Source of the DNA: Minisyncoccia bacterium
GTDB lineage: Bacteria; Patescibacteriota; Minisyncoccia; Phycocordibacterales; Phycocordibacteraceae
DNA: 64,000 bases
Reading direction: 5' to 3'
Assembly: GCA_038228545.1 (NCBI GenBank)
Contig: JBBRPE010000002.1
Span: 22,426 to 86,425, forward strand
The notes below the pieces were generated by a model that saw only the letters and a program-made list of their open reading frames with translations, was not told the DNA's origin and searched no databases. A program made the translations under genes and the position numbers. This document shows positions 1,777-40,059 of this stretch, in pieces. The first letter of the stretch is position 1. Each line of letters opens with the position of its first letter.

Positions 1777-3501
1777 ATGCAGATTCCAAGCTTTGTGATT
1801 CCGGTGGGGGTAGCAATTTTGTTCCTCGTGGCCGGTTTCTTCATGGTGATGGGAACGATTTCCCGTTACTACAAGAAGATCTCGCCCAACACCGTGGCCG
1901 TCATCACCGGCCGGAAGAACAAGATCAAGATGATGATCGACGGCGAGGAAAGGGTCGTCGAGAAGGGCTATCGCTTCGTCTCGGGCGGCGGCGCACTTAT
2001 CGTGCCGCTCCTCGAGAAGATGGAGGAGATGAGTCTCAACACCATCTCCACCACAGTGACCGTGACCGACGTTCCCTCGAAGGAGGGCGTGAAGGTGACG
2101 GTCGTGGCGATCGCCAACGTCAAGATCCAATCCGACGAGGCTTCCCTGCCGCTCGCCATTGAGCGATTCCTGGGGAGCTCCGAAGCTCAGATCCGCGGCG
2201 TCATCGACTCCACACTGGAGGGCGACCTCCGTGGCATCGTCGGCACCATGACGGTTGAAGGCCTGGTCAACGATCGGCAAACCTTCACCCAGCATGTACT
2301 CGAAGAAGCCGGCACCGACCTGGCCAAGATGGGCCTGTCGGTGGACGTGGTGAAAATCCAGTCCATCTCGGACGAACACGGCTATATCGATGCCCTGGGC
2401 AAGAAGCGCACCGCCGGCGTCGTCCGCGACGCCAGCATCGGTGAAGCCGAAGCTCAGCAGGAGACCGACGTCAAGACGGCGGCGGCCCGCCAAACTGGCG
2501 CCACTGCGCAAGCGGTCGCCGAGCAGGCAATCTCGACTGCCAACCGCGATCGTGACATGGCCATCGCCGACAACGAGGCGCAGGTCAAAGCCCAGCAGGC
2601 CCAGATCCCGATTGCCGCGGAAATTGCCGCGGCCAATCGGACCAAAGAGCTGAACGTCGCGACCGTTGATGCCAAAAAGGCGGAAATCACCGCCGGCATC
2701 GCGCTGCAGCAAGAAGAAGCCAAGCGTGTCGCGGCCGAACAGCAGGCCACCGTCGTGGTGCCGGCTGAAAAGGCCAAGGAAGCGCGTATCATCGCCGCCG
2801 ACGCCGGCCAAGCGGCGGCCGAACGTGAAGGTGAAGCCTTCCGCATCAAGGCCTCCAAGGAGGGCGAGGGCGAACGAGCGAAGCAGGAAGGTGTTGCGGC
2901 GGGCCGTAAGGCTCTCGCAAGCGCCGACCAAGCTGAGCGCGAGGCTCTGGCCGCAGGTAACAAGGCCCAGCTGCTCGCCACTGCGGCGGGTGTGCAGGCC
3001 GACCTGGAAGCCAAGGCTGCTGGTGAGATGGCGATGGCGAATGCCATTCGCGCTCGCCTGCTAGCCGAAGCCGAAGGCACCGAAAAGCGTGCCGAGGCGT
3101 TCGCCAAGCTCGACCAAGCCGGTCGCTTCCTGATGATTCTCGAGGCTCTGCCTCCGGTCATCGCGGCGTGCGGCGAAGCGGGTGAACGGATCGTGCGTCC
3201 GGCGGCGGAAGCCATCGGAACCGGTCTGGGCAACGTCAAAGAGATCCGCATCGTGGATCTCGGTGGTGGGAAAGACGGAGGCCAGTCCCTCGTCAGCCGG
3301 TTCGCTTCGACGCCGGTTCAGGCTTTCTTCGGGCTCTTTGAACAGGCGAAGGCGGCGGGTTTTGGTCCGCTCATCGACGAGCTCACGAAGCGCTTCGGCA
3401 TCAATCTCGACGAGATCATTCCGTCAGTTGCTCCGGCAGCTGCGGAACCTCCAATCGAAGGCGAAGCGAAGACGGTCACGCCAGCCGAAGCGAAGGCCTA
3501 A
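1777..3501 (+). CDS. flotillin-like SPFH/Band-7 protein (YqiK/FloA-like)
   Basis: N-terminal TM, SPFH core, long Ala/Glu-rich coiled-coil (EA-repeat) region; 574 aa. Confidence 0.85.
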   Translation: MQIPSFVIPVGVAILFLVAGFFMVMGTISRYYKKISPNTVAVITGRKNKIKMMIDGEERVVEKGYRFVSGGGALIVPLLEKMEEMSLNTISTTVTVTDVPSKEGVKVTVVAIANVKIQSDEASLPLAIERFLGSSEAQIRGVIDSTLEGDLRGIVGTMTVEGLVNDRQTFTQHVLEEAGTDLAKMGLSVDVVKIQSISDEHGYIDALGKKRTAGVVRDASIGEAEAQQETDVKTAAARQTGATAQAVAEQAISTANRDRDMAIADNEAQVKAQQAQIPIAAEIAAANRTKELNVATVDAKKAEITAGIALQQEEAKRVAAEQQATVVVPAEKAKEARIIAADAGQAAAEREGEAFRIKASKEGEGERAKQEGVAAGRKALASADQAEREALAAGNKAQLLATAAGVQADLEAKAAGEMAMANAIRARLLAEAEGTEKRAEAFAKLDQAGRFLMILEALPPVIAACGEAGERIVRPAAEAIGTGLGNVKEIRIVDLGGGKDGGQSLVSRFASTPVQAFFGLFEQAKAAGFGPLIDELTKRFGINLDEIIPSVAPAAAEPPIEGEAKTVTPAEAKA

Positions 3502-5100: not shown

Positions 5101-5846
5101 ATAGTTGTATACGCGCTAAATCCACTCGTTTGGGTGGCAATGCCATCCTTGGTAATACTGTACCCCTCAAATCCGTCAGTGCGTTCAAGAAAGTCGATTC
5201 CTTTCTCTCCCATGGCGAACGCTGCAGTCGCTAGAATGTCCGATTCAAGCACGTCGCCGCCAATGACGGTGACGCTCACCACAGTGTCGAGTGCATCGCC
5301 TGCATCGTGTGGGTTATAGATATGTGCGCCCCGCACGTACGAGCCTGACGTCGCAATTCCCTTTCCTTTCGGATACACCACTTTGACTATCTCTTCGCGA
5401 TTAAAGGGATTACGAATACCAATACTCCACTCGCCTCCCCCCGCATTCATTCCTGAAACAGCGATGTCGCCAGCTGCCTCGACCATAAAATTCTGGTGTC
5501 CACGTTGTGCAAGAAGAGCTGCAGTGTTCTTAATAGCCCATCCTTTTACAACACCTGAGGGGTCAATCGTCCTGTTCGGTTGATGTATGTCAAAGTATCC
5601 TTCCGTTTCCCTTCTTGCCTTCTCTGCGAGAGCGAAGACTACTTTCACGGGCTCGCTCCAGTTCGATTCTTTTATTTCTCCACGATTAATGCGAGATATC
5701 TCACTATCAAATTTGTAGGTACTGAAGCGAGTATCTATTTCACTCAGATACTCGAAGGCCGCAGTGAAGGATTCTTCGGAAAGATTCGCATCAACTATTT
5801 CTATGGATATGGGCATTCCCATAATGTCGGTGCGAGTCTGTTTCAT
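5097..5846 (-). CDS. apbE: FAD:protein FMN transferase ApbE (no signal peptide evident)
   Basis: ApbE family motifs (MGMPISIEI..., SGVVKGWA, ATSGSY.R); starts directly with conserved core, no lipoprotein signal. Confidence 0.85.
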   Translation of the reverse strand: MKQTRTDIMGMPISIEIVDANLSEESFTAAFEYLSEIDTRFSTYKFDSEISRINRGEIKESNWSEPVKVVFALAEKARRETEGYFDIHQPNRTIDPSGVVKGWAIKNTAALLAQRGHQNFMVEAAGDIAVSGMNAGGGEWSIGIRNPFNREEIVKVVYPKGKGIATSGSYVRGAHIYNPHDAGDALDTVVSVTVIGGDVLESDILATAAFAMGEKGIDFLERTDGFEGYSITKDGIATQTSGFSAYTTI

Positions 5847-27840: not shown

Positions 27841-29005
27841 CCTTCGTTTTCTTAGTCGAACGCTTTGGAAAGTAGGAATGCTTCTGTATTTTCTCGGGAA
27901 GATAGCTTTCTTCGTCGTATTTCTTATAGCCTTTGCCGTAGCCCAAGTCTTTCATGAGTTTTGTGGGTGCGTTCCGTATATTCATAGGCACCTTGAGGTT
28001 TCCAAAAGCTTTCACGTCCTCTTGAGACTTACCGAGAGCATCCGTAACTGAACGGTCCTTTGCGGCGTTCGCAAGATACGCAACGCCATGTGCGAGATTG
28101 AGTGAGCATTCAGGATAGCCAATCGTTTCGCATGCGCGAAAGACCGCATTGGCGACAACGAGCGCAGTGGGCTGAGCGAGGCCCACATCTTCGGAAGCAA
28201 AGATAACCATACGTCGAGCAATGAAAAGTGGGTCTTCCCCAGCTTCTATCATACGAGCGAGGTAATACATGGCCGCATCCGGCTGCGAAGCACGCATGCT
28301 TTTTATAAACGCACTTATGATGTCGTAGTGCTCCTCTCCTTTTTTGTCGTAGCGCAGATGCGGCGACTCAAGCGATTTATTTAAATTCGTGACGGTAATC
28401 TTCTTTCCATACAGTGCGATAGCGCCCTCAAGCATGCCAAGTGCCTTACGTGCGTCGCCATTGGCGTAGCCCATAAGCCACTCAAACGCCCCGTCACCGA
28501 GCGTAACCTCAGCACGCGCTACGATGGCTCGTAGTGCTTCTTCCGAGAGTGGTTCAAGTACGAATACACGACTGCGAGAAAGGAGCGCAGGAATAACTTC
28601 AAACGATGGGTTCTCCGTCGTTGCTCCAATGAGCGTGAGTTCGCCGCTTTCTACATACGGCAACAGAAAATCTTGCTGTGCTTTATTAAAACGGTGTATC
28701 TCGTCGAGAAATAGGAGTTTCGGTTTAAATTCGAGCGTTTTGTTCTTTGAATCACCAAGTATTTTGCGTATATCGTCCTTACTTGCAGAGACTGCAGAGA
28801 GTTCAAAAAGTTCCGCATCTAACGCGCGAGCATAAATGCGAGCAATGGTCGTCTTTCCCGTCCCGGGCGGGCCCCAAAGAATAAACGAGAAAAGATGTTT
28901 CTTCTCTATGGCCACACGTAGCGGCTTCCCCTTCCCCACCAGATGCTCCTGTCCGACCACGTCGTCGATATTCGTAGGTCGTATGCGGTTAGCGAGAGGC
29001 TCCAT
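27836..29005 (-). CDS. rarA: replication-associated recombination protein A (AAA+ ATPase RarA/MgsA)
   Basis: Walker [10 protein letters not shown], Walker B LFLDEIHRF, MgsA C-terminal domains. Confidence 0.9.
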   Translation of the reverse strand: MEPLANRIRPTNIDDVVGQEHLVGKGKPLRVAIEKKHLFSFILWGPPGTGKTTIARIYARALDAELFELSAVSASKDDIRKILGDSKNKTLEFKPKLLFLDEIHRFNKAQQDFLLPYVESGELTLIGATTENPSFEVIPALLSRSRVFVLEPLSEEALRAIVARAEVTLGDGAFEWLMGYANGDARKALGMLEGAIALYGKKITVTNLNKSLESPHLRYDKKGEEHYDIISAFIKSMRASQPDAAMYYLARMIEAGEDPLFIARRMVIFASEDVGLAQPTALVVANAVFRACETIGYPECSLNLAHGVAYLANAAKDRSVTDALGKSQEDVKAFGNLKVPMNIRNAPTKLMKDLGYGKGYKKYDEESYLPEKIQKHSYFPKRSTKKTKE

Positions 29006-29037
29006 ACAAAAATTCTACGCTTCTCTACATAAAGTGA

Positions 29038-29060
29038 AAGCGCGGTCAGAGACCGCGCTT
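29038..29060 (-). terminator. hairpin AAGCGCGGTC-AGA-GACCGCGCTT at 3' end of small-gene array (upstream of rarA)
   Basis: Perfect 10-bp stem; moderately U-rich downstream on minus strand. Confidence 0.4.
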
Positions 29061-29279
29061 ATTGAAGTACAACCCTCCGCGTTCACCTAGAGGACGGATC
29101 CCGAGGAAACGCAGCAACGGTCCGAAACGACCGGTAAGTAGCAGGTCGCGCTCGAAGCGCCGGCGACGCTCGCGCATGAAGTCGGCGAGTGCCGTCATGC
29201 CATCGAGACGGGCTGCCAGTTCCATTTCATGGGCGACCTTGATGCGGAAGCGGGCGCGCTTGATTTCATTATTCATCAT
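29046..29279 (-). CDS. small ORF A (77 aa, Arg-rich), hypothetical; preceded by hairpin motif copy 1 and AAGGGA SD
   Basis: ORF + RBS + conserved leader motif. Confidence 0.45.
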   Translation of the reverse strand: MMNNEIKRARFRIKVAHEMELAARLDGMTALADFMRERRRRFERDLLLTGRFGPLLRFLGIRPLGERGGLYFNKRGL

Positions 29280-29284
29280 GTGAC

Positions 29285-29476
29285 CTATTCCCTTTCAGCC
29301 AAGGAACCATTTCCCGGGCTGAATAGAGAGAGCAAATCGTACTTGGTGTCGTACTTGCCCTGTTTGAGTTGTGCACGAGTCACCACTCGGTTTCGTTTCT
29401 TGGTCTTATCCGCGACGACCCGCGGACGCAGGTGCGGGCTCCGTAGAGCCTTCGCAATCGGATTACGTCGTTTCAT
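29285..29476 (-). CDS. small ORF B (63 aa, very basic: MKRRNPIAKALRSPHLRPR...), hypothetical nucleic-acid-binding-like; 3' end encodes hairpin motif copy 1
   Basis: AGGGAGAA SD 5 nt before ATG; overlaps ORF C by 14 nt (coupled). Confidence 0.4.
   Translation of the reverse strand: MKRRNPIAKALRSPHLRPRVVADKTKKRNRVVTRAQLKQGKYDTKYDLLSLFSPGNGSLAERE
29295..29322 (-). promoter_or_regulatory. leader hairpin motif copy 1 (minus-strand RNA: UUCAGCC-CGGGAAAUGGUUCCUU-GGCUGAA)
   Basis: Outer stem TCAGCC/GGCTGA + inner palindrome GGAA-ATGG-TTCC, ~15 nt before SD of ORF A. Confidence 0.55.
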
Positions 29477-29789
29477 TAGGTTCTCCCTGTTTGTGTCGTG
29501 CCTGGATGAAGTTCAAGAAGTCTTTCAGCTCGACTCGAGCCAGGTTTGCCTCGTCACGAATGTCTTTGGGGACATTCCGGAACCAGGTCGCGCGACGGTC
29601 GCCGACCCGCATGGCGACTGCCTTGAGCCTCGCCTCCATCTCCTGGAACTTCACCGAATCCGTGAGCGGGCTGTGCGAATCCTTGGCGTAGATGGCAACG
29701 AGCACGAGGTCCCCACTGATCTTCGCAGCACGCGCGAGGTCAAAGACCACCGCAACCGTCGTGACTTTATTTCCGTAGAAATCGTTCAT
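29463..29789 (-). CDS. small ORF C (108 aa), hypothetical
   Basis: AGGAGA SD; hairpin motif copy 2 just upstream. Confidence 0.5.
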   Translation of the reverse strand: MNDFYGNKVTTVAVVFDLARAAKISGDLVLVAIYAKDSHSPLTDSVKFQEMEARLKAVAMRVGDRRATWFRNVPKDIRDEANLARVELKDFLNFIQARHKQGEPNETT

Positions 29790-29809
29790 TACATTCTCCT
29801 AAACCTCTG

Positions 29810-29836
29810 TCAGCCAACGAACCATTCGTGGGCTGA
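29810..29836 (-). promoter_or_regulatory. leader hairpin motif copy 2 (TCAGCC-CACGAATGGTTCGTT-GGCTGA)
   Basis: Same outer stem; inner palindrome changed to CGAA-TGG-TTCG (compensatory). Confidence 0.55.
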
Positions 29837-29909
29837 ATAAAGTGGAGGACCGAAATCCTCCGAGTTTACAGATTCTGTTGCCAGGCTCTGCGAGCCCCGT
29901 CCGCCATCC

Positions 29910-30269
29910 CTAGGCCGCAGCGATGAATCGCGTTACCGCGATGACGTGACCATCCTTATCTCGAATGGATCCGTCCATCGGCCCCGTTCCCGGAGCGATG
30001 ACATCGGGGCGTCCCGACACGTGTCCGAGCACAAGGCTCGAAACAATGAAGAACGTATCCGGGATGGGCTCCGGAAGGTTCTCCACCACCCCCCAGACGG
30101 GCGACGCGTGAATCGGGATGCCGCCGTGTTCGGCACAGCCAGTGGCGATTTGCTCGCCAGGAGTGCTTGAGACTCGGACCACCGTCCCGCAGGGCGGGAC
30201 GGTGACATCTTCATTATCCAGCTTGCGGAACGTGATCGGATGCGGAGTGAGATTGCGCCAGTAGCTCAT
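29910..30269 (-). CDS. small ORF D (119 aa), hypothetical
   Basis: Start trimmed to MSYWRN (AAGGGG SD); hairpin motif copy 3 just upstream. Confidence 0.45.
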   Translation of the reverse strand: MSYWRNLTPHPITFRKLDNEDVTVPPCGTVVRVSSTPGEQIATGCAEHGGIPIHASPVWGVVENLPEPIPDTFFIVSSLVLGHVSGRPDVIAPGTGPMDGSIRDKDGHVIAVTRFIAAA

Positions 30270-30290
30270 ATTCAGTACCCCTTGTGCTTT

Positions 30291-30319
30291 TTGAGTCCAC
30301 GAACCATTCATGGACTCAA
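30291..30319 (-). promoter_or_regulatory. leader hairpin motif copy 3 (TTGAGTCCA-TGAATGGTTCG-TGGACTCAA)
   Basis: Outer stem fully replaced (GAGTCC/GGACTC) but still base-pairs; loop GAATGGTTCG conserved. Confidence 0.55.
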
Positions 30320-30604
30320 TGAAGCGGTGGACTTGAGAGGTCCACCGGAGGTGCCGGCCTTTTTGAGGCCGGCCTCCTGGAACTTTTCAGCCCAGAAGTT
30401 TTGCGCGTCACGTTCGCGACGCTCTTTGGCCCACTGCTCGCGCAGAGCCGGCGAGGGGTAAACCTTGGCGGTCACTCCTTCCGGCGCCTGCTCGCAGACG
30501 CGGGTACCGCACGGCTTGTGAGTCGTGAAGTGGTTGCTCCCGACCTGGAGCATCCATTGCGCGCCTGCGCGACGGCAGACGGTGCAGGTAATGATGTCGG
30601 TCAT
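30308..30604 (-). CDS. small ORF E (98 aa), Cys-rich zinc-ribbon-like (CTVCRR...CGTRVC)
   Basis: Start trimmed to MTDIITCTVC (GAAGGAAA SD); hairpin motif copy 4 upstream; 3' end contains two additional strong hairpins. Confidence 0.45.
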   Translation of the reverse strand: MTDIITCTVCRRAGAQWMLQVGSNHFTTHKPCGTRVCEQAPEGVTAKVYPSPALREQWAKERRERDAQNFWAEKFQEAGLKKAGTSGGPLKSTASLSP

Positions 30605-30621
30605 GAGAGTTTCCTTCTCTA

Positions 30622-30649
30622 TCAGCCAAGGAACCATTTCCCGGGCTGA
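30622..30649 (-). promoter_or_regulatory. leader hairpin motif copy 4 (identical core to copy 1)
   Basis: TTTATTCAGCCCGGGAAATGGTTCCTTGGCTGA, 20 nt before SD of ORF E. Confidence 0.55.
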
Positions 30650-30779
30650 ATAAAGGAGCTGACGTATTTGTCAGCTCTTGGTGCGAATTTGTGGCAATCG
30701 CGGCCTCCCTGCTTTTTCGCTCTAAGGAAATTGTGAGCAACCTGTGGAATGACCCCGCCACAGGACAAGGGGTGAATGG

Positions 30780-30947
30780 CTACACGCGCCAGCCGGGCTT
30801 ACCGCCGGAGGGCGTGGAGATCAGGCGGGCTTCAAACCCGCACTGACCCCCATCAACCTCCCGGCGCAAGCGGCCGGCGGGCGTGTAGCCCTTGCTCTGG
30901 AGGAGCAAGGTTGCGGCCTTCACCAGCTCGCGTTGACGGTCGGTCAT
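30780..30947 (-). CDS. small ORF F (55 aa, MTDRQRELVKAATLLL...), hypothetical
   Basis: GGGAGA SD 6 nt upstream; degenerate AGCCC-N-GGGCT hairpin upstream. Confidence 0.35.
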   Translation of the reverse strand: MTDRQRELVKAATLLLQSKGYTPAGRLRREVDGGQCGFEARLISTPSGGKPGWRV

Positions 30948-31346
30948 GACGTTTCTCCCAAAGCCCGGGATGGGCTCTTTTTTGATTCTTAAAGAACTGT
31001 CTGGAAACGTACGAGGTGCGCACCCTCGCTTACCCGTTTCCTTGTATGCACTCGTCCTGGTTTTACCGAACTTCGTCAAAACTTGACGTAAGTACCAGAT
31101 ACGATGCACATGGCGCGACGGACACCACCCCTCTTCCCCATCGGGGACTGGCCCGAGAGCAGGCTTCATTTTTTGGGAATTGCTTTCGCAATCCCTCTCC
31201 CAAGCGGAAACGGGCCGCAGGTACGGCATTAAGTGCGCCGGATGAATCCTGCTGAGTCCCCTTCCCGTTCAGGGAGGAATCACGAATTAACTTTTCACTA
31301 TGGAAATCTTTCAATGACCCTTGCCGTCAATGACGACTGACAAAAG

Positions 31347-31375
31347 CTGTATACACCCGTTCTCTTTTTTTGTCA
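31347..31375 (-). promoter_or_regulatory. candidate sigma-70 promoter for small-gene array (minus strand: TTGACA-17 nt-TATACA)
   Basis: Consensus -35, 17-nt spacer, 5/6 -10; points toward ORFs F-A. Confidence 0.4.
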
Positions 31376-31382
31376 AGACATT

Positions 31383-31468
31383 CTGACTTATTTAGTCAAT
31401 TTATAACAAAAATGCCTATAAAATAGGCTATTTTACTAGTATTAAACGACATTATCAGCTGACTAAAT
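31383..31468. promoter_or_regulatory. operator-like repeat set between divergent promoters: TGACT-TATTT-AGTCA inverted repeat (31383-31397), palindrome GCCTATAAAATAGGC (31413-31427), TGACTAAAT (31460-31468); further CTGAC(T) copies at 31336 and 31503
   Basis: Repeats read directly in ~70% AT spacer. Confidence 0.4.
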
Positions 31469-31489
31469 TTGAATTCGTGACAATAAACA

Positions 31490-31518
31490 TTGACAAATCT
31501 TTCTGACTTTGCTACGAT
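31490..31518 (+). promoter_or_regulatory. candidate sigma-70 promoter (TTGACA-17 nt-TACGAT) driving noncoding transcript
   Basis: Perfect -35, 17-nt spacer, 4/6 -10. Confidence 0.45.
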
Positions 31519-31524
31519 ATGACG

Positions 31525-31778
31525 GTCTGGCTAGCCCCTTTGGGACTGCCTAATTCATTGGAGGAATCCATGAGAATGCGGCTTCATTGAGGTCGTCAGT
31601 CGGACGACCGCCCGGGTGTAACCGGGCAAAAAAGTAGGAAAGGTCATTCATGACCAGAATTTTCTCTCCAGGCGACGGCGAGTAGCCGACCGAAGTGCCT
31701 GTCTTGCGACGTAAGATGACGTCGCGACGAAGCAACCAGTACCGGGGCCGGGGACACAACGTCTCCGGCCCTTTTTTA
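31525..31778 (+). ncRNA. candidate ~255-nt noncoding or leader RNA bounded by promoter and intrinsic terminator; contains two SD-preceded micro-ORFs (MRMRLH, MTRIFSPGDGE) and several internal hairpins; antisense partner region of TrmB-like gene 3' end
   Basis: Promoter 31490-31518, terminator 31745-31778, no plausible protein gene between. Confidence 0.35.
31745..31778 (+). terminator. intrinsic terminator GGGCCGGGGAC-ACAAC-GTCTCCGGCCC + TTTTTT
   Basis: 11-bp GC-rich stem + U6. Confidence 0.65.
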
Positions 31779-32537
31779 CGCCTCTTTTTTCTTAGGCTCT
31801 TCGGAGTTGAGCCACAAGAAGTCAAAAATACTTCGCATATTCTCGGCTATCTCCTCACTTTCTATAATGACGCCGAATGGTTCATTACTGTATGAACGAA
31901 TTACCGTTTTGTTATCGAAAATCGACAAATCGATGCTTAGAGCGAGCACATCCGGCGCGATGAATCGTCGTTCGGTGAGAGCATCGAACTCAACTCGCTC
32001 GAAATGAGGTTTATGGAGTTGGATACCTTTTGAATACACACCCTTACCCCTCCGTCGCTCCGAGTATTCATCGAGCTCTTTTTCTGAAAAAAGATTTGCG
32101 AGATGCTCGTATGAAAAGATGGTGTAAATTTTCTTAGACTTGGTCATGAGGGCCTCCTCCCTTGTCGCTGACACACCCTCCTTTCCCGGAAAAAAACGAA
32201 CAACGGGACGTTCTCCTGCCCCTTCAAACTGAAGGAGTAGCGCTGGAAGCAAAGTTTGCAACAAACTCTCATTCGTTCGTAAATTTTCTTTTTGCTTTTC
32301 GAGTACTCGCTTAAGAGCCTCCGGGGACTCCGGCGCGAAATACGTTTTCTTCCCCTCCTCATACGTACTCATCAGTCCTTTTTCCATAAGGGACTTTATC
32401 TGTACGTACGTCGTGGGACGTACTATCTTCGCGTGTTTAGCGAGCTGGTCGGCGGTCGCGCGACCGATTTCAATTGATGCAAGATACACTCGGGCCTCTT
32501 TTTCAGATAGACCAAAATCCTGAAGTTCTTTTAGCAT
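31776..32537 (-). CDS. TrmB-family transcriptional regulator (N-terminal wHTH + C-terminal effector-like domain)
   Basis: MLKELQDFGLSEKEARVYLASIEIGRATADQLAKHAKIVRPTTYVQIKSLMEKGL matches TrmB HTH pattern; start trimmed to MLKELQ. Confidence 0.7.
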   Translation of the reverse strand: MLKELQDFGLSEKEARVYLASIEIGRATADQLAKHAKIVRPTTYVQIKSLMEKGLMSTYEEGKKTYFAPESPEALKRVLEKQKENLRTNESLLQTLLPALLLQFEGAGERPVVRFFPGKEGVSATREEALMTKSKKIYTIFSYEHLANLFSEKELDEYSERRRGKGVYSKGIQLHKPHFERVEFDALTERRFIAPDVLALSIDLSIFDNKTVIRSYSNEPFGVIIESEEIAENMRSIFDFLWLNSEEPKKKEA

Positions 32538-32557
32538 GTACACAGAATAGCATTCGG

Positions 32558-32710
32558 TGGTGCGGGATAGGAGAAGTGTCCAGCGAAGACGCAGGCACGC
32601 ATCGGTCACAGATATTTTCCTGCTGGAAAATTCCGCGACCCCGCCTCAGCGCCGACGCGCTTCCGGCTTCCGATTCTCCTATCCCAGCCATTACACACGC
32701 TTCGCGTGTT
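32558..32710. repeat. tRNA-linked conserved element, copy 1 (downstream of tRNA-Gly-UCC on minus strand): partial direct copy of the tRNA 3' end (32558-32574), ~70-nt conserved core (32595-32666), inverted copy of the tRNA T-loop/3' end (32667-32685), hairpin ACACGC-TTC-GCGTGT (32694-32708)
   Basis: Compared by eye with copies at 34905-35250 and 35942-36154; core about 90% identical to copy 3. Confidence 0.55.
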
Positions 32711-39141: not shown

Positions 39142-40059
39142 CTATTGCTGACGCGAGTGGAAACGTTTATGTACTTCACGTAGATGCGCGTCGGTAACGT
39201 GCGTGTAAATCTGGGTGGTATTGATAGAGGCATGGCCCAGGAGAGCCTGAACACTGCGTATATCAGCACCATTTGAAAGGAGGTCGGTAGCGAATACGTG
39301 ACGAAGCGTATGAGGGCTTACCTTATTGGTTATTCCGGCTTGTGCAGCGTACTTCTTAATGTGACGCTGGATATCACGTGGTGTGATGCGATGCGGTTTG
39401 GTATCGCGGCCATCTACAAAAAGTGCTTCCTCCATGTCCTTACGGGCCTTCAAATAGGCCGTAACAGAGTCCTTGGCAGCAGGCGAGAGAAATACGACCC
39501 GTACTTTCTCGCCTTTTCCGCGTACCGAAAGGTCGTCGCGAGTGAGATCGATGTCTGAATTGAGTGCACAGAGTTCCGCCACACGAAGCCCTGTTGAGAA
39601 AAGGAGCTCGAGAATGGCGGTATCACGCAGTGCTACTTGCTGTTTGCGCGGCTCATCACTTTTCTTAGCTACGTCTTCCGGTGCTTTCATGAGACGTTCG
39701 AGCTCCGCGGAAGTGATGATATCAATTTGGCGCTCCGGAAGCTTGGCGAGCTCAATTCGTTCGGGATTCAGGCCCTCTACACCGCGTTTACGTAAATACT
39801 TAAGGAAAGCGCGTAGGGCAATGAGGTAGTAATTCTGTGTGCGGCGCTTCATGGTCGCGTTTCCCGTACCTGGCTGGCGGTTAAGCCAAAGGCGGAATTC
39901 ACGGATTTTGTCCTCTGAGATGTCTCCAACGCCCTGAATCTTCATTTGTTCAAAGAAAACCGATAGGTAATGGTCGTAATTTTCGACTGTTTTTACCGCA
40001 CGACCACGCTCAATTTCCGTATATTCGAGGAATTCACGCTTCATCTGTACCGCGTCCAT
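39142..40059 (-). CDS. tyrosine site-specific recombinase, XerC/XerD-like
   Basis: N-terminal SAM-like core-binding domain; catalytic R..HxxR..Y context (TLRHVFATDLL...GHASINTTQIYTHV). Confidence 0.8.
   Translation of the reverse strand: MDAVQMKREFLEYTEIERGRAVKTVENYDHYLSVFFEQMKIQGVGDISEDKIREFRLWLNRQPGTGNATMKRRTQNYYLIALRAFLKYLRKRGVEGLNPERIELAKLPERQIDIITSAELERLMKAPEDVAKKSDEPRKQQVALRDTAILELLFSTGLRVAELCALNSDIDLTRDDLSVRGKGEKVRVVFLSPAAKDSVTAYLKARKDMEEALFVDGRDTKPHRITPRDIQRHIKKYAAQAGITNKVSPHTLRHVFATDLLSNGADIRSVQALLGHASINTTQIYTHVTDAHLREVHKRFHSRQQ

Follow-up and report, generated by a model that had tools for sequence, protein, structure and literature searches.

The window analyzed here, a 64-kb stretch of contig JBBRPE010000002.1 from a Minisyncoccia bacterium, harbors between positions 31380 and 29040, read on the minus strand, an array of six small open reading frames (ORFs F, E, D, C, B, and A) with four copies of a conserved hairpin (coordinates without a locus name are positions in this window). 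These hairpins represent a new family of stem-loops on the sense strand; they are confined to the junctions in a hypervariable array of small genes driven by a promoter, and we found no description of either the element or the locus in the literature. The window is a piece of bacterial chromosome of ~51% GC that carries NusA, ClpP, RNase Y, HU, RarA, tRNAs, and a Xer recombinase, and the host is of the type of the tiny symbiotic bacteria of the candidate phyla radiation (CPR) or Paceibacteria; the array itself is flanked by rarA and a gene for a TrmB-like regulator with a helix-turn-helix (HTH) domain. With respect to function we infer, with about as much confidence as doubt, that each hairpin, together with a second one directly preceding it, might constitute a module that forms or processes mRNA ends and insulates the adjoining cistrons, while also offering the homology for cassette exchange.

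Structure and folded strand of the hairpin family

The four window copies stand before ORFs E, D, C, and A, all on the minus strand, as the original prediction, made from the letters of the window, had proposed. We likewise recovered its outer stem TCAGCC/GGCTGA, the apex GAA-(A)TGG-TTC, the 5' flank YTTATT, and the two variants, namely CGAA-TGG-TTCG in the second copy and GAGTCC/GGACTC in the third, the latter being in fact an uninterrupted stem of 13 bp. That prediction missed a lower stem CUC/GAG (3 bp, sometimes 4-5 bp), which extends the conserved hairpin (hairpin 2) across a small internal loop, a non-conserved GC-rich hairpin (hairpin 1), which lies directly 5' of each window copy and whose 3' arm runs straight into CUYUAUU, and the part played by the hairpins as boundaries of exchangeable cassettes. 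The window elements are as follows, with the bit scores of a covariance model (CM) for hairpin 2 and with hairpin 1 as read from the fold:

30659-30610, minus strand: hairpin 2, copy w4, before ORF E; 59.7 bits
30328-30280, minus strand: hairpin 2, copy w3, before ORF D; variant stem TTGAGTCC/GGACTCAA, 13-bp stem; 48.9 bits
29846-29798, minus strand: hairpin 2, copy w2, before ORF C; 62.3 bits
29332-29283, minus strand: hairpin 2, copy w1, within ORF B, 15 nt upstream of the start of ORF A; 60.0 bits
30656..30677, minus strand: hairpin 1 of junction F/E, GAGCTGAC..GTCAGCTC and then CTTTATT; called terminator-like
30326..30346, minus strand: hairpin 1 of junction E/D, GGTGGAC..GTCCACC; overlaps the last ORF E codons
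29844..29861, minus strand: hairpin 1 of junction D/C, GGAGGA..TCCTCC and then ACTTTATT; called terminator-like
29329..29360, minus strand: hairpin 1 of junction B/A, GGGCAAGT..ATTTGCTC, inside ORF B; -11.8 kcal/mol against -5.0 kcal/mol for shuffles

Over 29 nt, two of the window copies do not differ at all, and shuffles predict 0.00 occurrences of this pattern. The copies fold with z-scores of -3.0 to -5.9 relative to shuffles (w4 with its hairpin 1 reaches -31.5 kcal/mol, z = -5.9). On the sense strand the CM scores them at 49-62 bits, versus 12-17 bits on the antisense strand. With filters off, the CM found no copy in the 64-kb window beyond these four; the degenerate fifth copy that had been suggested before ORF F is accordingly not borne out, the best candidate there (31278-31257) reaching only 5.5 bits (E = 2.5). 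The hairpins at two of the four hairpin-1 sites satisfy a simple terminator definition, and that of junction B/A is also conserved in two other loci (L007 and L002 of the sample introduced below). Hairpin 1 very often takes the form GGAGG(A)...(U)CCUCC, i.e., a Shine-Dalgarno (SD)-like 5' arm paired to an anti-SD-like 3' arm (window 29844-29861; junctions of L001, L002, L015, and L019). Only tRNAs reach the Rfam gathering score in the window, and nothing relevant appears at E <= 10 in 28800-31600, in keeping with the earlier remark that the motif was not recognized as any described RNA family.

With the TrmB-like regulator and one array protein as anchors, we assembled ~20 syntenic loci from Paceibacteria-type metagenome-assembled genomes (MAGs), drawn from the contigs of seven TrmB-like relatives and from a metagenome scan with the commonest array protein. 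A motif scan of one genome per species yielded two real loci, L001 (Candidatus Adlerbacteria) and L002 (a Candidatus Paceibacterota MAG), each with several hairpin copies, an adjoining TrmB-like gene, and different small ORFs; two other hits of that scan, L003 and L004, were chance matches. A CM built from nine copies and rebuilt from 24 gave 53 matches at E < 0.02 in 243 kb, all inside arrays and all on the strand of the ORFs. The CM search that had been named as a check on the motif thus finds it in syntenic arrays of related genomes, with 40 distinct copies from 18 loci, which we used as the covariation set. In these copies 97.7% of the cells are paired, 12 of the 14 pairs show compensatory changes on both sides, and none of 500 shuffles reaches any of the observed pairing measures, whereas sliding the partner by 1-3 columns leaves 31-48% paired. 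Since this alignment had been fitted to the model, we repeated the analysis with a structure-blind MAFFT alignment and RNAalifold, which predicted the same three-part helix with compensatory changes at 10 of 13 pairs. There is hence strong evidence that the pairing is under selection.

The conserved base of the hairpin reads YCC-N-CUCUAUU(C/G)AG...CU(G/C)A(U/C)NGAG. More specifically, hairpin 2 has the base 5'-CUCUAUUCAG...CUGAUUGAG-3' and comprises the 3-bp lower stem, the small internal loop (3x2), a stem of 6 bp, a position with a mismatch or G.U, and a top that varies freely in both upper stem and loop, entirely different stems included. The paired length is 14-17 bp in three segments, and the element as a whole measures 37 to 76 nt; the longest version, found at a single junction (L011 7374-7449, equivalent to L012 6129-6204 and L026 481-556), keeps the base and has its top replaced by an extra helix of 12 bp. 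The coding (sense) strand is the one that folds, as seen from the 60 G.U against five A.C cells and from the fold stabilities, which favor sense over antisense in 22 of 27 copies.

Such strand-specific folding with a G.U bias excludes both a duplex-DNA operator and a repeat of the repetitive extragenic palindromic/bacterial interspersed mosaic element (REP/BIME) kind. The element is short, imperfectly palindromic, and intergenic, as an ordinary functionless repeat, a palindromic operator, or a chance pattern might be; yet REP/BIME sequences are dispersed in tens to hundreds of copies genome-wide, while here we see four copies at one locus in 64 kb, recurring at the same locus in ~20 genomes and confined to arrays in both the window and the 243 kb, with no matches expected in shuffles. 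Moreover, pairing is kept as the sequence changes and the length ranges over 37-76 nt, which argues against a duplex-DNA protein site of fixed spacing. We therefore give an ordinary repeat next to no credence. The earlier argument from covariation for a functional RNA rather than a DNA operator stands with regard to selection on pairing and to the exclusion of the duplex operator, but covariation alone leaves room for single-stranded DNA (ssDNA) sites of the integron attC kind.

Neither a K-turn nor a box C/D motif is present, as judged by eye, because CUGA pairs canonically with UCAG; a three-way junction enclosing both hairpins was rejected as the flanks pair in one copy only; and a hammerhead-like core was set aside for the want of an Rfam ribozyme match and of a third stem, despite the resemblance of CUGAUUGAG to CUGAUGAG. 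A scan of the window junctions called no promoter and no sigma-70-like site inside the element. Beyond the sampled loci, the exact clade-specific pattern has no match in JGI metagenomes and no convincing copy in the IMG/VR viral contigs, where the lone match (L005) is a chance one in a coding region; a broader base pattern likewise has no match in the viral contigs.

A GC hairpin stands ahead of each of the 40 copies (on average -14.2 kcal/mol, versus -7.3 kcal/mol for shuffles), and 29 of the copies have an SD-preceded start within 80 nt downstream, the median distance from GAG to start being 20 nt. In the window the motif was first placed 15-25 nt upstream of the SD sequences; it actually lies 5-10 nt upstream of them and 15-23 nt upstream of the start codons. 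The accompanying assignment to 5' leaders is right insofar as the copies are upstream of starts, but w1 falls within the 3' end of ORF B and has no free leader. Across the loci the hairpins occur between cassettes, in some also before the first ORF, and never after the last one, a placement that suits a 5' or intercistronic element. Several unrelated ORFs run into hairpin 2, and for some of these the TGA within the conserved CUGA is the stop codon. Examples from three unrelated families that end in-frame in this way are L011 7452-7673 (...LFSPRMVVG*), L021 9890-10135 (...LFNSRIVVG*), and L001 3244-3411 on the minus strand (...LYSTREWFVG*), all terminated by the TGA that lies within the conserved (C/U)UGA of the 3' arm.

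The strong sequence conservation of the base under a variable top, the short and fixed distance to the start codon, and the pairing of an extended lower stem with the SD in some copies (e.g., UCCUUU/GAAGGA in w4) might indicate a translational operator, i.e., a binding site at the internal loop and lower stem for a specific host- or array-encoded RNA-binding protein upstream of each SD. However, SD sequestration is inconsistent between copies, 11 of the 40 lack an SD-preceded start within 80 nt, and the obligatory upstream hairpin is left unexplained. A dedicated binding protein encoded in the array, as originally suggested, is unlikely because no ORF family occurs in all arrays: the commonest, termed the ORF1 family (seven aligned sequences, too divergent for a locus scan), has no member in the window or in L017, and DUF7230, the family of ORF B, is seen in 8 of ~14 distinct arrays. 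On balance, we regard the operator as improbable. A nut-like processive antitermination system, in which CUCUAUU would act as boxA, hairpin 2 as boxB, and the factor would be reloaded after each cassette terminator, could draw on the terminator-like hairpins preceding the copies and on those copies that read CGCUCUAUU or CGCUCUUUU, which partly resemble boxA (CGCUCUUUA). Against it, CUC is base-paired with covariation while boxA is read single-stranded, and a single site in the leader would suffice, making one per junction superfluous; we deem it very improbable.

Hairpins as cassette boundaries

In most but not all loci the layout is recurrent: clpP is followed by the TrmB-like gene, a stretch of 0.9-1.35 kb in which no genes are called, 2-10 small ORFs on the same strand, and tig on the opposite strand. 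In each cassette a short spacer and an SD lead into one or two small ORFs, and the arrays draw on a common pool of ORF families in different orders, such that their content differs between genomes. Three pairs of close relatives place the points of divergence in the hairpins. First, L011 and L012, with identical TrmB proteins, share 99.4% identity over 6.4 kb and become unrelated directly after the GATTGAG of one hairpin, which itself differs by a single nucleotide polymorphism in its 3' arm. Second, one cassette is replaced between L011 and L026, bounded on the left by a full hairpin 2 and on the right by the sequence of a hairpin-2 3' half. Third, L001 equals L015 with an additional 1.15 kb between two hairpins with identical cores, the sole L015 hairpin at that place having the 5' flank of one L001 hairpin and the 3' flank of the other. 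These breakpoints identify the hairpins as the places of cassette gain, loss, and replacement, and hence as cassette boundaries. At the orthologous ORF1/ORF E junctions of L023 and L025 the hairpin stems are quite different, which suggests conversion among copies. Hairpin 2 tracks neither of its neighboring cassettes consistently (L023, L025, and L019), so that this comparison does not separate readings at the level of RNA from those at the level of DNA.

The same observations bring to mind integrons. Their attC sites and the clusters of attC sites lacking integron integrases (CALINs) also feature co-oriented, promoterless small ORFs behind one promoter, with an array content that varies between close relatives, and an imperfectly palindromic, structured site at each cassette boundary whose structure is conserved above its sequence; here too, arrays differ by whole cassettes with the junctions in the site (L011/L012, L011/L026, L001/L015). 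The parallel extends to the anatomy, viz., a conserved basal stem, an unpaired spacer, a second stem in which a position is unpaired or mismatched, and a terminal structure that varies (up to 76 nt in L011), and to the ORFs that end inside the site, as integron cassettes do (for attC structural features, see PMC2727003). The hairpins might thus be attC-like ssDNA recombination sites served by a recombinase encoded elsewhere, be it Xer-type or another protein, in an integron-like platform without a linked integrase, with the homology breakpoints and the L001 insertion between two identical hairpins as its traces.

Several features speak against this. The RYYYAAC/GTTRRRY core is absent from all 40 aligned copies, which have CUCUAUU and GAYNGAG at their ends. 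An integron integrase is missing from the vicinity: the sole tyrosine recombinase of the window (39142-40059) lies 8.5 kb off and is Xer-type, scoring 239 bits as XerA/XerD against 124 bits as IntI (cutoff 265), and no recombinase is encoded within 5 kb in eight syntenic loci (L008-L021). CALINs also lack IntI, such that the missing integrase alone is not excluding. Whereas attC recombines through its bottom strand, it is the coding strand that is favored here, and the one conserved mismatch position in hairpin 2 is on the sense strand. The last cassette is not followed by a site, site length is 37-50 nt (~80 nt when hairpin 1 is counted) as opposed to 55-140 nt for attC, an extra, cassette-specific hairpin precedes each site, and the host belongs to the CPR. 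Furthermore, the differing stems at the ORF1/ORF E junctions resemble gene conversion rather than a cassette-borne site, and plain homologous recombination between ~45-nt repeats accounts for the breakpoints. Taken together, we consider an attC-like identity unlikely, though it is the strongest of the alternatives to our favored reading.

Another known parallel is provided by the promoter-early stem-loops (PeSLs) of T4-like phages, which are composite terminator/promoter motifs mediating modular shuffling (PMC2839356, PMC4122927). In both cases short conserved stem-loop motifs lie between small, mostly unknown ORFs in hyperplastic regions, the breakpoints of indels and replacements between close relatives fall in the motif, and exchange is explained by homologous recombination between copies. 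In contrast to PeSLs, the conserved part here is the covarying second hairpin rather than a promoter, the terminator-like hairpin 1 is found at two of the four window junctions with no early promoter fused to it, and the locus is chromosomal and bacterial. By kind, the element is best grouped with the structured repeats that delimit gene cassettes or cistrons, but falls outside attC, PeSL, REP, and any Rfam family.

Some further peculiarities of individual loci were noted. L002 has its TrmB-like gene divergent from the array, and the whole 2.7-kb module of TrmB gene and array lies between 48-nt direct repeats (2751-2798 and 5465-5512; 98% identical) that contain a hairpin and look like an att-type duplication flanking an inserted module. 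Two adjacent ORFs of L001 carry at their 3' ends one copy each of a ~100-nt segment (ggtagtatccccgtctgactacc...ggaaatataagactgaatacca; ~4460-4360 and ~3740-3650, minus strand), within the 1.15 kb missing from L015. Some genomes have a second small-ORF array adjoining a second TrmB paralog (L017 875-4285; L008 716-2477); that of L017 contains a family hairpin (3066-3110), and in the same locus a DUF6922-AbiEii pair occurs in two copies, on either side of the TrmB gene and its downstream array.

Promoter, leader, and cargo of the array

The remaining features of the window locus, with the promoter and terminator as read from the sequence, are:

31776..32609, minus strand: TrmB-like HTH regulator gene, conserved upstream neighbor of the array (Pfam TrmB, 48 bits)
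31348..31376, minus strand: array promoter, -35 TTGACA (31376-31371), 17-nt spacer, TG-extended -10 TATACA (31353-31348)
31324..31343, minus strand: inverted repeat TTGTCAG-N7-TGACGG, just after the -10
30948..31323, minus strand: long GC-rich untranslated leader with no convincing ORF
30780..30947, minus strand: ORF F, 55 aa, first cassette; no family hairpin before it
30308..30604, minus strand: ORF E, 98 aa, Cys-rich, zinc-ribbon-like
29910..30269, minus strand: ORF D, 119 aa, homolog of Crn4/Unk01-family ring nucleases (PADLOC, PDB, and PHROG matches)
29463..29789, minus strand: ORF C, 108 aa, two-gene cassette with ORF B (14-nt overlap)
29285..29476, minus strand: ORF B, 63 aa, very basic, DUF7230, ArfA-like; last ~25 codons encoded by hairpins 1 and 2 of junction B/A
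29046..29279, minus strand: ORF A, 77 aa, last array gene; no hairpin 2 after it
29038..29060, minus strand: terminal terminator hairpin AAGCGCGGTC-TCTG-ACCGCGCTT followed by TCACTTT, closing the array

The window TrmB-like protein has 428 orthologs or close relatives, the few with source names being from Paceibacterota, Kaiserbacteria, or Patescibacteria, and its gene shows a matching layout in L001 and L008-L021. The promoter block TTGACAAAAA...TGTGTATAC is kept in eight syntenic loci (TTGACA-17-TGnTATAC), as is the inverted repeat in the form TTGTCAG..TGACG; a consensus scanner did not call the array promoter because its -10 ends in A. The inverted repeat is either an operator-like site or a 5' hairpin of the transcript, and several more TGTCA/GTCAA half-sites upstream of it are likewise conserved. 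From this arrangement we infer that the repeat and half-sites may be the site of the TrmB-like regulator, which would place the array under its control. The conserved promoter, inverted repeat, and half-sites, with a terminator hairpin closing the array, make plausible the single leftward operon that had been proposed. The ORF A stop codon (29046-29048) sits in the loop of this terminator. Leaders of 0.2-0.9 kb are found at the same position in the syntenic loci with differing sequences, and Rfam searches of the leader and upstream region (gathering score and E <= 10) gave no family.

The interval between the TrmB gene and the array promoter (31380-31790, both strands) has additional conserved features, namely the repeated TGTCA/GTCAA half-sites, a divergent promoter-like site (TTGACA-17-TACGAT, 31490-31518, plus strand), and a 10-nt box GGCGACGGCG at 31672-31681; a strong hairpin with a T-run lies at 31744-31780 on the plus strand. 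This interval could specify a divergent small RNA or simply consist of operators and the TrmB terminator. As a candidate the small RNA was rejected, as nine loci gave no consensus fold, with only the terminator hairpin and one 10-nt box being conserved.

The cargo includes two proteins with recognizable affinities. ORF D matches PADLOC Unk_01 (E = 6.3e-12) and phrog_21731 (E = 7e-15) and, in the PDB, the Crn4a, Crn4 H15A, and Crn4b chains at E = 7e-6 to 3e-3 (Crn4a 9sma, E = 7.2e-6, with the N-terminal NLTPH aligned). By these matches, the N-terminal His motif included, it is assigned to the Crn4/Unk01 ring nuclease family, which is also found on phages and plasmids (PMC12830947). ORF D is a stand-alone cassette in a window without a CRISPR locus, and a second member is encoded in L021 (8298-8684). 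ORF B has as its only Pfam affinity DUF7230 (26.3 bits, just short of the cutoff of 27; relatives score 27.1 and 30.6), a family of 187 representatives at E <= 0.001 of mostly ~36-90 aa, with no ArfA-family match at E <= 1. Single sequences of this family found no match in the PDB, but the six best matches of a 72-sequence profile against 177,635 PDB sequences are all ArfA, at E-values of 0.014-0.09, and hhalign of the family against ArfA (a sequence checked against the PDB) gives 70% probability and P = 4e-5 over the ribosome-binding region. This is suggestive, though not proof, of the ORF B family being a remote relative of ArfA. Its frame runs through hairpins 1 and 2 in the window, L007 (152-322), L002 (~3200-3020, minus strand), L011 (8714-8917), and L026; a word-indexed search with ORF B gave two matches, one of which (P0002, locus L006) is on a phage-like contig without a hairpin.

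As for the other cassettes, an ORF F homolog is the first ORF of the L017 array, ORF E has homologs in the L015, L023, L025, and L007 arrays, and the C-B pair recurs in L002. ORFs C and E have no identity in PDB or Pfam, and ORFs A and F none in Pfam.

A proposed role in processing, insulation, and exchange at the junctions

The evidence above establishes the structure of the element, its folded strand, its position, and its tie to cassette boundaries. Every junction presents two tandem stem-loops on the mRNA strand, i.e., the cassette-specific GC-rich hairpin ending in YCC and then the hairpin with the conserved base. The reading that we favor, in which the hairpin pair forms or processes mRNA ends, would operate as follows. 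One regulated promoter, next to the gene for a TrmB-like repressor or activator, would drive a long leader and a string of compact cassettes. The cistrons would be separated by partial termination or else by a host endonuclease, either of the RNase III type or one that reads the conserved internal loop. The upstream message would retain hairpin 1 as protection of its 3' end (or hairpin 1 would act as a weak terminator), and hairpin 2 would serve for recognition and cap the downstream message at its 5' end, a fixed ~20 nt away from the start codon. Where an ORF extends into the element, as the ArfA-like ORF B does, it might be translated from truncated, stop-less mRNA in the manner of E. coli arfA, whose internal stem-loop either ends transcription or is cleaved by RNase III, leaving non-stop mRNA as the template for ArfA (PMC8012679). 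Finally, the presence of this ~45-nt element at all junctions in many genomes could supply the homology for cassette insertion, deletion, and swapping, as has been proposed for motif copies in the PeSLs of T4-like phages (PMC4122927).

Comparable arrangements are known from the early operon of phage T7, with its intercistronic RNase III sites, and from E. coli arfA; internal-loop hairpins there lie between small cistrons of one long transcript or at their 3' ends. There the upstream RNA keeps a 3' hairpin after cleavage, a step that is a proposal for the present element, and the arfA ORF runs through its mRNA-truncating stem-loop, just as the ORF B frame runs through the hairpins. The stems here are, however, shorter, the base is conserved far beyond what RNase III requires, and T7 sites do not mark exchangeable cassettes.

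A number of points weigh against processing of this kind. RNase III substrates typically have ~20 bp, about two turns of double-stranded RNA and often with an internal loop, and an interrupted pairing of 14-17 bp is short for a classical one; the excess sequence conservation of the hairpin base points instead to a specific reader; and the U-tract after hairpin 1 (CUCUAUU) is weak. Further, attC sites likewise combine a conserved base, a variable top, and compensatory change, and a DNA recombination site would account equally well for the evidence on cassette boundaries. Hairpins of ssDNA, too, tolerate G.T pairs, and the strand bias therefore tells which strand folds rather than that it folds as RNA. 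One may thus also envisage both roles in one element, namely an integron-like gene-capture platform of the CPR without a linked integrase, whose sites, folded from the coding strand, would act in recombination as well as in mRNA processing and insulation, and whose TrmB-controlled content would comprise accessory or counter-defense genes of the mobile-genetic-element type (Crn4, ArfA-like). We regard this composite as unlikely in that full form.

Irrespective of its mode of action, the hairpin family is a well-supported new structured element from a lineage with almost no known regulatory-RNA or mobile-DNA biology, and through it a conserved, hypervariable locus of small genes, driven by a promoter, comes to light in genomes of the Paceibacteria type, with cassette exchange taking place at the element. 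If the element acts in RNA processing and insulation, it would be a natural 'cistron insulator' that makes captured genes independent of their context; if it is a recombination site, it would represent a second, integrase-independent solution to the integron problem. The cargo, with a predicted ring nuclease of the Crn4 type, directed at cyclic oligoadenylates, and an ArfA-like factor with an arfA-like mRNA architecture, suggests that these arrays may be a reservoir of counter-defense or stress genes in an obligate symbiont.

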